This document shows, in pieces, positions 38,637-63,303 of a DNA stretch of 64,000 nucleotides. Position numbers and translations under genes: made by a program. The notes below the pieces were generated by a model. It saw nothing but the letters and a program-made list of their open reading frames with translations. It did no database searches and had not been told where the DNA came from. Positions within the stretch are counted from its first letter, which is position 1, and each line of letters begins with the position of its first letter. The DNA comes from an uncultured virus (IMG/VR IMGVR_UViG_3300037043_000022) (Duplodnaviria; Heunggongvirae; Uroviricota; Caudoviricetes): IMG/VR virus record IMGVR_UViG_3300037043_000022; one strand, written 5' to 3'.

Positions 38637-39263
38637 ATGACCTTACCAGACAATAGATTTCGGATCCCTGGACCACTGATTAATTTTCCATCGGATGTTG
38701 GTGAAACTGGCCAACCACATGATGAATATCCATCACCTGGTCAACCAAGATATGATTGGATGAGAATGGCAATCATAGCATTGCTATCCAATCAATCGTC
38801 TTATGATGAACCACAAAATTTCAGAGTAGGATCACCGTGGTTTGATTTAAATGATATGACATTGAAAATTCGAACTGGCACTGGCGTGGCCGGCACTGAG
38901 TGGTCACCAGTATCAGATGTCATTTCTCTTGGATTACCTGGGCCTATTTCATTATCACAATGGTATGACAGTGCGAGCGTCGCATTAGCATCCATACGAC
39001 CACAATCGACATATAGTGGTCGTGCCATTAATGCTACAAATGGCATACCGATACCTGAATCAATCAGATCAAGCATTTACTCAAACACTAGACCGTTTGT
39101 ATGGGTAAATGGATCATTGATCGATCCTCGCGACGTACAAATCGATCCCGGTACTTGTCCAGTCAGAATAAACTTAGTGAATGATTTGAAAACTGGTGAT
39201 AAATTTACCGTTTTGTTGACCAACATAGCCAATTTCGTCAATGGTGACGTGTTGGCCGGATAG
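38637..39263 (+). CDS. Putative virion structural protein
   Basis: 208 aa; FVWVNG motif; AGGAG RBS; baseplate neighbourhood. Confidence 0.55.
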   Translation: MTLPDNRFRIPGPLINFPSDVGETGQPHDEYPSPGQPRYDWMRMAIIALLSNQSSYDEPQNFRVGSPWFDLNDMTLKIRTGTGVAGTEWSPVSDVISLGLPGPISLSQWYDSASVALASIRPQSTYSGRAINATNGIPIPESIRSSIYSNTRPFVWVNGSLIDPRDVQIDPGTCPVRINLVNDLKTGDKFTVLLTNIANFVNGDVLAG

Positions 39264-39272
39264 GAGATAATC

Positions 39273-40328
39273 GTGGCTACAGTTAAAATGTTTGATGAGG
39301 TTCACAAAGGGAATGCTGGACCGATGGCTGGCATGCTCGAATTCATCATCAAGGACAAAAACGGTGATGTCGTGGATAGAATAATTGATCGTAATTTAAT
39401 TAAGATACATGCGAAGGAAATTTTATCACATCGCATGCCATTTAATGAGGTGTGGAACCCAGTAGGCGGCACTGGCACTGGTGCGTGGGAGCCAACCACA
39501 TTTGATCCTGATGGTGAATACGGCGTCAAATACATTTTATTTGGGGCAAGTTTTGATCCTAATGGTGTACCATTAGACGCTGATGATCCAAGATATTATG
39601 TCACCGATCCAGTCACTGGCACAAAGGTCCCAATCCGTTTAGGCGTTGGAGCTGAATATGGTGGTGGGTTGATTAATGCCATACCGATTGCCGAACCGTA
39701 TAGAGCATTGAAACGCATCGAATCAGTCTCTTTCGAACCAACTGCACAACCGGCCGGTACGCCATTATTGCAGGCAGACGTAAGGACAATAAACAATATA
39801 GTGAATCTCCAAACTACATTGATGCTCGATGAATATAATGGTTTTGGTCTAACTGATAGCGATTATTTCACAATATGTGAGGTGGCATTAGTCGCTGGGA
39901 AAAAATTAGATCATGTGAGCGCATGTGAATGTGATCCTCATTCGTTATTTATGGAAGGACATTCAGATGGGACGCCATTATCGGTGATCGCCAATGGGAC
40001 AGACGTCATAACGTTGGATCCATCTGAGGCATTAATTGATTTAATTAGAACCGGCGACATGATCAAATTGGTATCTGCTGGCGGATCAATTGCTGATGAC
40101 ACTCTTGGACAGATTACTCCGTACTATCTGGTTATGGACAAATTACCCGGTGGTAGAGACATTCAATTAGATAGAGTGCCGACAGACGCAAATCAACAGG
40201 TCCTGGTCGGACAGATCGGAGCATACAAAGACACAATGAGAATATTCGCGCATCGCGTGCTAGCCACTCCCGTCAAAAAATCAAATAATTTTGAAATCAT
40301 AACAAGATGGAGCATAATTTTCAATTAA
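39273..40328 (+). CDS. Putative baseplate/tail-collar structural protein
   Basis: EYNG...ICEVAL and C-terminal VKKSNNFEIITRWSIIF, typical of phage tail proteins. Confidence 0.6.
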   Translation: MATVKMFDEVHKGNAGPMAGMLEFIIKDKNGDVVDRIIDRNLIKIHAKEILSHRMPFNEVWNPVGGTGTGAWEPTTFDPDGEYGVKYILFGASFDPNGVPLDADDPRYYVTDPVTGTKVPIRLGVGAEYGGGLINAIPIAEPYRALKRIESVSFEPTAQPAGTPLLQADVRTINNIVNLQTTLMLDEYNGFGLTDSDYFTICEVALVAGKKLDHVSACECDPHSLFMEGHSDGTPLSVIANGTDVITLDPSEALIDLIRTGDMIKLVSAGGSIADDTLGQITPYYLVMDKLPGGRDIQLDRVPTDANQQVLVGQIGAYKDTMRIFAHRVLATPVKKSNNFEIITRWSIIFN

Positions 40329-47478: not shown

Positions 47479-47603
47479 GAAATTTTTCTCCTTTTGATTT
47501 TTCAAAGCAGGCAATACAGAATTATTGTATTGCGCCAATGTTCTCCAATATGTTTGACATAACACACAAAAAACACACAGAAAAAGGCAATAAATACAGT
47601 AAC

Positions 47604-47972
47604 ATGGACAATGTGTGTACAGTTATGATTTTTAGTTATCGTCTCATTAAAATACTATTGTTTTGCAAACATTGTGATGTTCTGTTATGCTTCAATCATA
47701 TGGACAATGTGTGTACAGTTATGATTTTTTAGTTATTGTCTCATTGAACGTTGTGGTGTGTGCATTAGTTGCACTCACAGAAATGCCTGTCGGCTCAATT
47801 TCATTACCTCACTGCACACGGAAATATGGACAATGTGTGTACAGTTATGATTTTTAGTTATTGTTCTACCAAACATGCAGGGGTCGCATATGGAATATAT
47901 CTCTCGCTCGCTGGAAGAACAAGATAGTTATGATTTTTAGTTAAGGGTCGCATACGGAATATATCTCTCGCT
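47604..47972. repeat. Dispersed direct repeats in the strand-switch intergenic region
   Basis: 36-bp ATGGACAATGTGTGTACAGTTATGATTTTTAGTTAT x3 (47604, 47700, 47826) plus a partial (47926); GGGTCGCATAYGGAATATATCTCTCGCT x2 (47881, 47945). Confidence 0.9.
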
Positions 47973-47997
47973 GGAAAGGAATCGGATCGCCCGGCGC

Positions 47998-48053
47998 GGG
48001 CCGGGCGGGGGCGGGGCGCGGGTGGGGCGGGGGACGGGACGGGCGGGACGGGG
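47998..48053 (+). other. G-quadruplex-forming G-tract cluster
   Basis: 11 runs of 3 or more G in 56 nt within an AT-rich genome. Confidence 0.75.
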
Positions 48054-48112
48054 CCGACTGGCTGGTCGGCTGGCCTGCTCGTCTGGTTTTTCTGAGAGAG
48101 GGAGATACTACT

Positions 48113-48319
48113 ATGGCGAAGGTACTCAACAACGACACGGGGTCCCTAAAAGTGGGGAAAGCCGGGGAAAACCTCAAGGTCGGGGATAAAATCCGGATTT
48201 CTGGCGAGGACAAGATCAGGACCATCAGCTACATCATGGGTGCGGGAGAAAAGACCCATGTCTGTACCAAGGGGTTCGGACCCTTCCCGTTGGGTGAGGT
48301 CGAGTTCTCGGCTGAATAA
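48113..48319 (+). CDS. Small protein, tandem paralog 1 (KOW/SH3-like LKVGDKIRI)
   Basis: 68 aa; GGGAG RBS; highly similar to 48452..48667. Confidence 0.85.
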   Translation: MAKVLNNDTGSLKVGKAGENLKVGDKIRISGEDKIRTISYIMGAGEKTHVCTKGFGPFPLGEVEFSAE

Positions 48320-48381
48320 CCCATCTGATGAGGCTGGGTGGTCCCCAGCCGAAAGGGGGAGGATTTTCTCTCCCTAATGGG
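48320..48381 (+). ncRNA. Type I hammerhead ribozyme HH1 (CUA; predicted cut after 48376)
   Basis: CCCAU-CUGAUGA-GGCUGGG/CCCAGCC-GAAA-GGGGGAG/CUCUCCC-UA-AUGGG. Confidence 0.93.
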
Positions 48382-48451
48382 AAACCAGAAGGTTTCGTAA
48401 GGTGAGTGTTTCACCCGACGATAATCTTCTAATTTGAGAGGGAGGTGTAGA

Positions 48452-48667
48452 ATGGCGAACAAAGTGACGAACAACGACACGGGCAGCTTGAAAGTGGGAG
48501 CGGCTGGTGCGAATCTCAAGAAAGGTGACAAGATCCGTATTGCCGGAGAAACGGCGGATCGGGTCATCAGCTATGTCATGGGTGCGGGAGAAAAGACCCA
48601 TGTCTGTACCAAGGGGTTCGGACCCTTCCCGTTGGGTGAAGTTGAATGGGAAGCCTCGCAGGACTAG
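48452..48667 (+). CDS. Small protein, tandem paralog 2
   Basis: 71 aa; GGAGGT RBS; identical MGAGEKTHVCTKGFGPFPLGEVE. Confidence 0.85.
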   Translation: MANKVTNNDTGSLKVGAAGANLKKGDKIRIAGETADRVISYVMGAGEKTHVCTKGFGPFPLGEVEWEASQD

Positions 48668-48695
48668 TCACACCGGGTGAAAGCCCGCCGAGGGT

Positions 48696-48749
48696 ATGAT
48701 CCCTCGGTAGACAACCTTCCACAAAGAGGGTTGTCTACCCAGGGATCAT
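48696..48749. other. Long intergenic hairpin (about 22 bp)
   Basis: ATGATCCCT-c-GGTAGACAACC / GGTTGTCTACC-c-AGGGATCAT. Confidence 0.8.
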
Positions 48750-48795
48750 TGTGATCCTAATCGAGTAGAGTAAAGTCAGAAAAAGGAGGTGTCCA

Positions 48796-49002
48796 ATGAA
48801 TGAAAACCTGTGCCAGTTGGGACTGAAATGCTTCCCGTCCCCAGACAAGAAGATGGTGGAAATCAGGAAAAGAAGTGGTCAGACCGTCTATCGTGGGACG
48901 GTCGATGAAGCCGCGAATTACATAAAGATGTTGAATCGTGCACGCCACATGCAGGTAATCGACCTGCAGGCAGCTATCGAGGCTGCGCTGCAAGCCAAAT
49001 GA
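48796..49002 (+). CDS. Hypothetical protein
   Basis: 68 aa; AAGGAGGT RBS. Confidence 0.8.
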   Translation: MNENLCQLGLKCFPSPDKKMVEIRKRSGQTVYRGTVDEAANYIKMLNRARHMQVIDLQAAIEAALQAK

Positions 49003-49006
49003 CCTG

Positions 49007-49040
49007 TGCCACCGGGGACAATAAATCATCCCCGGTGGCA
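49007..49040. other. Perfect 12-bp hairpin directly after a stop codon
   Basis: TGCCACCGGGGA-N10-TCCCCGGTGGCA; no U-tract. Confidence 0.7.
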
Positions 49041-49277
49041 ACATATACAAGCCTATTGTCATATCTGACCGATTTCGGGGGATATAGCAACATATACGCT
49101 TTTATTGCCGATGAACATACAAACCAAGAAAGGAGGTGCGACATTCTTGTGAATTAAGACCCAGTCCGGAGGGAGCCATTAGATACTGGGAGGCAAAATA
49201 TGCTTGTGCTCCTGACCGTAGATCCCGGTACAATTAAAGAAGGAGGTTTCTTATGCGATATTCGTAAAAAATAAGAA

Positions 49278-49434
49278 TGCAGCACCGCACAACGGTCGAA
49301 AGCCCTCGACCGAAACTAGCTGCTGAAGATGGGGGAAAAGCACATGAACCAACTCTTCATTGGATTGGTTCATATGCAAAGTACCCCAGTAAGCCGAAGA
49401 GAACCCGCGTGCAGGAAGAAGCTAGGGTGCTGCA
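49278..49434 (+). ncRNA. Unclassified multi-stem structured RNA directly 5' of HH2
   Basis: Pairs UGCAGCACC/GGUGCUGCA, CGGUCG/CGACCG, CUAGCU/AGCUAG, AUGAACCAA/UUGGUUCAU; two AGUA/GAA loop-E-like motifs. Confidence 0.6.
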
Positions 49435-49435
49435 G

Positions 49436-49492
49436 CCCATCTGAGGAGACCGGTGGCACGGTCGAAAGGGGAGGGAAACCTCCCCTAATGGG
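49436..49492 (+). ncRNA. Type I hammerhead ribozyme HH2 (cut after 49487)
   Basis: CCCAU-CUGAGGA-GACCG/CGGUC-GAAA-GGGGAGG/CCUCCCC-UA-AUGGG. Confidence 0.93.
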
Positions 49493-49519
49493 AGCCACCA
49501 AACTGAAAGGAGGTGTGGC

Positions 49520-49705
49520 ATGCGTCGAAGCACCAGCAAGATCGTAGAGAAGGAATATTTCTCCAACGACTGGAAGTGGTCATGGTCTTGTCGTGCGAAG
49601 ACCCGTTGTTCTCAGAAAATCAAAAAGCAGCTGAAGAAAGCTGCACACCGTCGTGCTCGTCGCGGTGATGGTGTTATCTTCCTCAACGGTTATGATGTCA
49701 TCTAA
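49520..49705 (+). CDS. Small basic protein
   Basis: 61 aa; AAGGAGGT RBS; KKQLKKAAHRRARR. Confidence 0.75.
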   Translation: MRRSTSKIVEKEYFSNDWKWSWSCRAKTRCSQKIKKQLKKAAHRRARRGDGVIFLNGYDVI

Positions 49706-49813
49706 TAGAAACGTATATGTTGTTATATCCCCCGAAATCGGTCAGATATGACAATAGGCTTGTATATGTAGAAACCCCACAAATAACATCCACCAAACGA
49801 AAGGGAGGGAGAG

Positions 49814-50158
49814 ATGAGAAAAAAGAGATTCGCATTCATTTCAAGACATGTACCGACCGAGGATCAGATTCAGTTGGCAGACCAGCTTCGCATCGAGTTG
49901 GTCCACGTTGGTGATGAGGATGCATTCAGTGAAACTGCTGCTGGTGATAAAGATGAGGAGTACGAAGGTGTAGTTGTTGTCAATCCTGCTGCTGCACTGA
50001 ATTACATCTTGAAAGTCCCTGTGGGCGTTTTCGAAAATGCTGCTCGACCAGGAGTCGACGGCAAACCGTCATTTAAAGCAGTATCATTCCGTGTTTGGAA
50101 TCTCCAACAAGGTGATGATTGTTACTGGCATTGTGATAAAACGATCAAGGAGAAATGA
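49814..50158 (+). CDS. Hypothetical protein
   Basis: 114 aa; GGAGGG RBS. Confidence 0.75.
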   Translation: MRKKRFAFISRHVPTEDQIQLADQLRIELVHVGDEDAFSETAAGDKDEEYEGVVVVNPAAALNYILKVPVGVFENAARPGVDGKPSFKAVSFRVWNLQQGDDCYWHCDKTIKEK

Positions 50159-50159
50159 C

Positions 50160-50312
50160 ATGATCCCAGACGGAATGGATGTAGCCGCAGAACAAGCTGC
50201 CGAGGAATTCAACAAGGAATGGTCGGCAAAAGAAGTCGCCATTTGGTGGAAGAAATGGTACAAACATGCTGGTCACAAACGACTGGGACGGATTCTTGTG
50301 GGTAAATCATGA
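50160..50312 (+). CDS. Small hypothetical protein (WWKKWYKHAGHKRLGR)
   Basis: AAGGAG RBS before MIPDG. Confidence 0.65.
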   Translation: MIPDGMDVAAEQAAEEFNKEWSAKEVAIWWKKWYKHAGHKRLGRILVGKS

Positions 50313-50563
50313 AGGAGGAGGGTGCCAAAATGGATCACGATGAACTTCAAAATGCCGAAACACCAAATTGGCACCGAGAGATGGCAATTTATATTCGTAA
50401 AACGACAGGTTGCACACATGAAGTTGCTATGGATGTCGTCGGGAAATTTATTGAGATTCATTTGAATGCCTGGAACCAACGATGGTGTGCTGGTTATAAC
50501 GCGGGAGCAGAAGAAACGCGGTCGCGTTTTGCCAGGCATAAAGAACGGGAACCAGATGTCTGA
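50309..50563 (+). CDS. Hypothetical protein
   Basis: 84 aa. Confidence 0.65.
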   Translation: MKEEGAKMDHDELQNAETPNWHREMAIYIRKTTGCTHEVAMDVVGKFIEIHLNAWNQRWCAGYNAGAEETRSRFARHKEREPDV

Positions 50564-63004: not shown

Positions 63005-63188
63005 CCCGCCGGAGCGAGCAAGGCGGCACGGACACCAACGGAGTGAGCAAGAACAAGTACGATCTAAGATAAAAACCCTTGAGATCACGAAAGGAGGTGC
63101 CACTTCAATTAGTTACCGATCATGTTCGACGTGAGCGGCACACGTCAAGGCCATTTAATTGCCGAACGGAATAATTGAAAGGGTAAAA

Positions 63189-63280
63189 CCCATCTGACGA
63201 GATCTTAATGATCGAAACAAGCACACCACACGGGTTATAAGGCACAGAAGTCCGCCGCCCGTTGGTGTGCTTGTAATGGG
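63189..63280 (+). ncRNA. Type I hammerhead ribozyme HH7 with extended stem III (GUA; cut after 63275)
   Basis: CCCAU-CUGACGA-GAUC/GAUC-GAAA-CAAGCACACCA/UGGUGUGCUUG-UA-AUGGG. Confidence 0.92.
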
Positions 63281-63303
63281 CAAGGAGATTAAAATCGTTT
63301 TGA

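Follow-up and report, generated by a model that had tools for sequence, protein, structure and literature searches.

The stretch of DNA analysed here (the window, 64,000 nucleotides) is part of a virus record of 320,399 bp that has direct terminal repeats and is near-complete in groundwater and coal metagenome runs. This giant phage is T4-like and has a T4 gp23-type major capsid protein sharing 27 to 38% identity with those of annotated phages. Elsewhere the genome encodes a tRNA-Met and a tmRNA; the latter (39160-39541 in record coordinates) adjoins the tRNA-Met and carries an unusually long tag of 18 residues. The element under study lies near the start of a long + strand block of small genes. 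By descriptor, we identified six type I hammerheads (CUGA at 48325, 49441, 51952, 57115, 62711, and 63194); BLAST added a seventh at about 58144, and there is probably an eighth, recognized by eye, near 63300. According to PMC3088659, hammerheads flank prophage genes, and cutting of long transcripts has been proposed as their role. The features of the locus are as follows.

49034-49106, no strand: left arm of an inverted repeat, 73 nt (92%)
49128-49157, + strand: strong Shine-Dalgarno sequence (SD) and 4-codon frame starting from AUU (ILVN, then stop); the TAA stop is TAG in the variant contig X9
49200-49274, + strand: putative 24-codon frame with GGAGG upstream
49238-49267, + strand: strong SD and 4-codon frame (MRYS, then stop); the stop lies 10 nt before P1
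49278-49434, + strand: structured RNA domain of 157 nt (from folding), a three-way junction P1/P2/P3 with P3 running into a long arm
49278-49286 / 49426-49434, + strand: P1, 9 bp
49281-49305, + strand: twister-like segment resembling the 3' half of type-P5 twisters in related phages, with 16 of 19 invariant bases; catalytic strands absent
49293-49312, + strand: P2 hairpin of 7 bp, made of CGGUCG/CGACCG (49293-98/49307-12) and an A-U as seventh pair
49316-49321 / 49420-49425, + strand: P3, CUAGCU/AGCUAG, stacking directly on P1
49322-24 / 49392-94, + strand: GCU/AGC helix, pair probability 0.49
49325-49327 / 49388-49391, + strand: loop-E motif 1, GAA/AGUA, with a 3-nt bulge after GAA
49331-34 / 49384-87, + strand: GGGG/CCCC helix
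49335-49337 / 49380-49383, + strand: loop-E motif 2, GAA/AGUA
49340-49377, + strand: apical helix with 5-nt loop, including a small UCU/GGA stem
49340-42 / 49375-77, + strand: GCA/UGC helix
49344-52 / 49365-73, + strand: AUGAACCAA/UUGGUUCAU helix, 9 bp
49395-49419, + strand: one-sided bulge of 25 nt (from folding)
49436-49492, + strand: HH2, a type I hammerhead predicted to cut after A49487, whose loop II is able to pair with the 3' tail
49520-49705, + strand: gene for a basic protein of 61 aa, downstream of HH2, with four distant relatives and no family
49704-49776, no strand: right arm of the inverted repeat

The 73-nt inverted repeat brackets the whole cassette, and each of its arms is quasi-palindromic. 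In one of the four runs compared over 48000-50400, an RNA-library contig (X6) joins 49040 to 49769 on opposite strands with 46 shared letters, which may reflect an inversion, a template switch during reverse transcription, or an assembly artefact. The 61-aa protein is rich in Lys and Arg, and its W-x3-W and KK-x2-H-x2-AR-x2-DG motifs are invariant in five sequences. It matched no Pfam or PHROG family and could bind RNA. Used as queries, this protein and a neighboring 71-aa protein found no relative in the viral scans, and relatives of the neighboring 68/71-aa genes were recovered from five metagenome contigs and one genome contig. Other structures occur around the cassette. Between divergent genes at 47596-48060 lie direct repeats of 28 to 47 nt and a very G-rich tract, and a comparable G-rich tract precedes the homologous gene in two of the related contigs (L319 and L320). 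Directly after the 71-aa gene, at 48668-48760, there are a GAAA-capped hairpin and a 24-bp hairpin with an alternative fold (z of -6.7 for the segment); this slot is occupied by a twister in relatives. At 63087-63190, about 100 nt upstream of a hammerhead, a very strong SD without a proper start codon resembles the site at 49128.

We then analyzed the fold of the element. P1 is followed by a 6-nt linker, hairpin P2, the triplet AAA, and P3. Beyond P3 come the one-sided bulge, GCU/AGC, the first loop-E motif, the 3-nt bulge, and four G-C pairs, and the arm continues through the second loop-E motif, GCA/UGC, and the 9-bp helix to a short apical stem-loop. Pair probabilities of the named helices range from 0.87 to 1.0, except for the terminal U-A (0.54) and GCU/AGC, whose low value is explained by the nearest-neighbor model, which credits loop E with nothing. 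The minimum free energy of -63 kcal/mol (z of -6.32) was equalled by none of 200 shuffles. Strong folding is nevertheless common locally, since 5 other 157-nt windows of 29 in 48000-50400 reached z values of -4.6 to -6.7. Over the upstream 171 nt, structure does not exceed the chance level (z of +1.1), which supports the 5' boundary of the element. Folding of the reverse strand is almost as strong (z of -5.19), and placing the element on the + strand therefore relies on the motifs, on the direction of the genes, and on a G-U pair in the X9 variant. Modeling suggests two possible pseudoknots of the 25-nt bulge, one with 49287-90 (4 bp; 3% of shuffles) and one with apical 49353-58 (6 bp; 5% of shuffles).

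Every helix named in the earlier note was found where that note had placed it. Likewise, a lone G (49435) separates P1 from stem I of HH2, so the element indeed ends 1 nt before the hammerhead, and the strong ribosome-binding site with the MRYS frame precedes it as described. The UCU/GGA stem, the 25-nt bulge, the second SD with its 4-codon frame, the 24-codon frame, and the inverted repeat are additional to that description. The proposal that HH2 sets the 3' end of the element did not hold, as the predicted cut lies 53 nt further downstream, after A49487. The upstream product would thus carry the element together with the hammerhead core (about 53 nt), and the cut would separate both from the 61-aa gene.

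Both GAA/AGUA pairs, which we take to be loop-E motifs with a presumed three-dimensional form, are in register, in line with the two motifs claimed previously. On both strands of the 320-kb genome this double motif was found a single time, and it appeared in none of 30 genome shuffles and none of 20,000 element shuffles. The distinctive feature of the element is hence the in-register GAA/AGUA pair and not strong folding alone.

Natural variation was available from a lake-water DNA run, in which a single 151-nt contig (X9; depth of 2.6, so that it may hold errors) covers 49280-49427. It differs from the element at three sites: C49311 is U (turning a G-C of P2 into G-U), an apical U-G is U-A, and a C.A of the arm is C-G. 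All three differences keep or improve pairing, and all are one-sided in this single low-depth contig. Random triples of transitions folded as well as X9 in 4% of 600 cases, and the chance that three changes all fall on compatible paired sites is 2%, against 43% for merely breaking no pair. Compared with the genome, X9 shows 3 differences in 148 positions in the element, and the 71-aa gene close by has 17 in 245 (Fisher P = 0.034), but the element is no better conserved than the upstream piece (3/148 versus 7/184; P = 0.52). As a side observation, X9 carries a 21-letter loose end before 49427 that, with 5 mismatches, resembles codons of DUF4116 repeats found at another place in the genome; it was disregarded.

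The same contig bears on whether the element is a small protein gene. A frame of 55 codons (49277-49444) is open and in phase with the MRYS minigene, from which it could be reached by read-through. However, its own start has no SD, and the X9 changes are all non-synonymous and hit second codon positions, one of them creating TAG. A stop in the only long frame argues that the element is not coding, and it is without coding constraint; we consider a protein-coding role very improbable.

Two RNA libraries from two studies yielded contigs over 49139-49422 and 49112-49457, the latter spanning the whole element. The element contigs are the deepest in these libraries (34 versus 6 to 12, and 24 versus 3 to 15), a comparison in which contigs cannot rank expression. 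RNA-library contigs can contain DNA, and they carry no strand, end, or level information; with this reservation, the element is apparently expressed in nature. None of 11 RNA pieces crossed either hammerhead cut site, while two DNA pieces crossed the HH2 site, at patchy cover.

Could the element act in cis on HH2 or on the genes behind it? A switch or an elongation signal (put/nut-like) would have its fold altered by a ligand, a protein, or a ribosome on the minigene, and would tune HH2 cleavage or read-through of the long early operon. The location of the element, at the beginning of a very long block of genes on one strand or close to it, would suit such a role, and the MRYS stop would place a ribosome at the foot of P1. 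Moreover, 49327-33 is perfectly complementary over 7 nt to HH2 stem I and the start of the core, and 49306-12 is so to stem II. For the segment at about 49208-30, folding predicts mispairing with HH2, favored by 3.5 kcal/mol before the pseudoknot is counted. Matches of 7 nt are, however, common by chance, the folding model ignores the pairing of HH2 loop II with the tail, and HH2 folds normally when the element alone is present. Indeed, its stem probabilities are 0.8 to 1.0 with the element attached, indicating independent folding. Because this independently folding hammerhead stands between the element and the next gene, and because the element has no + strand terminator behind it, regulation in the usual cis sense, one of the two roles put forward in the earlier note, is unlikely. 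We regard the cis reading as a whole as unlikely too, but as deserving consideration.

We searched for homologues by several routes. An exact 20-nt pattern gave no match in viral contigs. A loose double-motif pattern matched at least 118 loci, and among the matches listed, the 28 with three or four complementary inner bases fold unlike the element. Patterns built on the G/C stem found nothing in viral or genome contigs (the viral pattern does match the window), and the metagenome pattern search was likewise negative. All these scans demand exact matches, so that a homologue with other motif bases would be missed. Searches by blastn gave only 21- to 29-nt chance matches in phages and none in plasmids. 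A covariance model built from the one sequence found only the element itself in its own genome. It found nothing in 80 of 114 hammerhead-pattern loci, only 2 of which had real hammerheads, and nothing in 25 of 80 capsid-related records, only 2 of which are at least 90% complete. At five loci with relatives of the 71-aa gene there was nothing below an E value of 0.1, and loci L324-L327, L235, and L236 were also negative. At the one locus retrieved that encodes a relative of the 61-aa protein, such an RNA is absent, showing that element and protein are not a fixed pair. The covariation data thus consist of the near-identical X9 contig, with its three one-sided compatible changes and no two-sided covariation. 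A literature search outside which most subscription papers lay found no description of this RNA, and a 15-nt piece of it is absent from six of the supplementary files of the largest phage RNA catalogue (PMC10690425).

The element might be a leftover, that is, decayed ribozyme cassettes and hairpins that still fold well and are no longer selected. It is a single copy without a homologue in the viral, metagenome, genome, phage, and plasmid collections searched, fragments of it resemble parts of twisters and hammerheads, and the other strongly folding windows nearby show that hairpins abound here. Neither twister nor hammerhead, however, would supply the twin loop-E arm, which never arose from shuffles, and the X9 variants are compatible at all three sites. 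We find this origin doubtful and judge that the element is probably under selection.

The earlier note had recognized no known ribozyme or riboswitch and had proposed a scan against Rfam. That scan matched no family. Rfam 15 gave no hit in the window at the gathering threshold, in scans that also miss the window's hammerheads, and at an E value of 10 the element drew only chance-level miRNA, snoRNA, and CRISPR matches (E values of 2.3 to 8.7). Descriptor scans for type I and type III hammerheads recovered HH2 and nothing within the element. By eye, no rearranged hammerhead was found either, as CUGAAGA at 49323 faces GUAA and not GAAA, and there is no UH block with a fitting stem I. HDV-like, pistol, hatchet, twister-sister, and hairpin ribozymes gave no Rfam hit at an E value of 10, and comparison by eye with their consensus features did not reveal the class-specific pseudoknot topology and conserved core of any of them. 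The UGGN-ACC antiterminator bulge and the stem IIA/B signature of T-boxes are absent from 49107-49500. ARAGORN found no tRNA-like structure in the window, and there is no GUUCGAA. Retrons, diversity-generating retroelements, Y RNAs, and TnpB guide RNAs were rejected for want of a cognate gene in the phage genome (RT, RtcB, Ro60, and TnpB-type genes absent; PF00078, PF05731, and PF07282, with controls detected), a host protein acting in trans being possible. Partial likenesses, seen by eye, to c-di-AMP, cobalamin, and lysine riboswitches, group II domain 5, pistol, and an anticodon loop had no Rfam backing and were discarded.

The closest resemblance is to the twister. Three of the five metagenome contigs with relatives of the 68/71-aa genes (L319, L320, and L321) contain six type-P5 twisters, five of them over the Rfam cut-off. 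All have a 3-bp P2 and follow 71-aa gene homologues and other small genes. By eye, a type I hammerhead is present in L320 as well (near 1505-1580), and the class of ribozyme seems interchangeable in this phage group. A further contig, L322, has an intergenic RNA motif in five copies (about 35-100, 395-452, 922-984, 1665-1732, and 2170-2240) without Rfam hit, in which a short helix is crossed by GGCGG/CCGCC pairing and accompanied by a variable hairpin and CGAA; the end of one copy immediately adjoins the 5' end of a tRNA-Lys. This motif, a candidate ribozyme or processing signal, sits where related phages have hammerheads or twisters.

Within the element, 49281-49305 is the genome's best match to a twister half, reached by 2 of 5,000 element shuffles with a motif of 19 invariant bases that was defined after the resemblance had been seen. 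The P4 loop U-NNN-AA-GC and the upstream GC for pseudoknot T2 are present (49296-49303 and 49287-88). The catalytic strands are not. The N-A-A cleavage strand directly 5' of P2 is absent (ACC is preceded by AGC), as is P2'-G-A with the T1 strand, no GGUGA or GAUCG occurring in 49107-49500. The sole GAUUG of that region lies within the apical helix without a fitting P2'. The Rfam twister-P1 and twister-P5 models find nothing on the element at an E value of 10. We therefore rejected the element as a twister, both catalytic strands being missing. From the shared segment, common ancestry with twisters is plausible, and the 5' half of the element may derive from a twister ribozyme that lost its activity. 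Rearranged twisters have been looked for without success, as reported in PMC10085705.

These data also bear on a new self-cleaving ribozyme, perhaps a distant twister relative, in which the bulge would form a pseudoknot with the junction and the loop-E arm would dock to complete an active site. Such an activity would fit an element found among at least six type I hammerheads, in a neighborhood whose homologues carry type-P5 twisters (five over the Rfam cut-off, one under), and bearing the twister half-match; pistol, hatchet, and twister sister came from such neighborhoods, and yet other structures from them did not cleave, as reported in PMC6765202. The twister half-match counts for less because of the late definition of the motif, and P4 would have only two pairs. 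One RNA contig spans the element whereas no RNA piece spans a hammerhead cut site, a weak comparison at patchy cover. Finally, a second cut within 53 to 210 nt of that of HH2 looks redundant. We consider a new ribozyme quite improbable. Of the ribozyme or regulatory RNA that had been suggested, the structured RNA thus stands, and the ribozyme is not favored, the element failing the defining features of the classes that could be tested.

Taken together, the element is a genuine non-coding RNA domain on the + strand, of a kind not described before and belonging to no known family. For its function, inferred from anatomy only, our preferred explanation, to which we give an even chance, is that of a stable non-catalytic RNA domain released from an early transcript and binding a partner through its loop-E arm. 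The element would be made within the phage's long early transcript, which would be cut upstream in or near the 73-bp inverted-repeat stalk in the style of RNase III, and downstream by HH2. The released piece, of about 380 to 400 nt, would contain no frame of more than 24 codons behind an SD. Its 5' side could be protected by ribosomes at the strong SD and minigene sites, and its 3' side by what is left of the hammerhead; strong SD sites stabilize transcripts, including an mRNA of phage SP82, according to PMC7509114. In the least certain step, the stiff arm, with its two distorted-groove loop-E motifs and the 25-nt bulge, would form a putative platform that docks a host or phage protein, the RNA acting as decoy or scaffold during early infection.

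A bolder reading, which we hold to be rather unlikely, is that of a new phage RNA class built on a twister-derived junction, either as a new self-cleaving ribozyme or as an ex-ribozyme turned abundant decoy. In the first case, the loop-E arm and the 25-nt bulge would provide the active site; in the second, the decoy would bind a host translation or defence protein. If true, either would provide a natural example of an RNA fold being remodeled for another function. Neighborhoods like this one have yielded new ribozyme classes, and most of the non-cleaving RNAs found there are still without function. Pending a homologue or an assay, the element is a single well-formed orphan, which limits its interest. 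It is also short, self-contained, apparently expressed, and flanked by plausible processing signals.

Compared with known systems, the element shares with twisters (RF02684, type P5; RF03160, type P1) the ACC-GC-linker-GGU-NNN-AAGCCC segment and the ACC/GGU helix, its long arm occupies the place of P5, and the matching gene neighborhood of relatives has twisters. Unlike twisters, it has neither the NAA cleavage strand nor the GA-T1' strand, a perfect helix stands in place of the catalytic internal loop, and the P4 loop is tied up in a hairpin of 7 bp. Its CUGAAGA and several GAAA words recall the hammerhead but are not in a working arrangement. HH2, for its part, is a type I hammerhead with a loop II/tail pseudoknot, like the class described in PMC3088659.

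In T-box stem II and other loop-E/S-turn arms, the 5' strand bears GAA and the 3' strand AGUA. The arm of the element has the same arrangement, but it carries the motifs in tandem, has no Rfam hit, and is followed by no amino-acid gene. The stable RNAs of T4 (rnaC and rnaD) and T5 (RNA1, 2, 2H, 3, I, III, and IV) are similar in size (73 to 172 nt), in their closed multibranch fold, and in having an unknown job; they differ in being located in tRNA clusters, and none has an in-register loop E by descriptor. The best alignment to them (T5 RNA2H) was reached by 2 of 200 shuffles among nine tests and is not seen by the covariance model. Non-cleaving structured RNAs from hammerhead and twister neighborhoods are the RAGATH-type motifs. 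The element differs from them in being one example with no Rfam model hit at an E value of 10, but it is, like those in PMC6765202, an orphan structure beside ribozymes and small phage genes.
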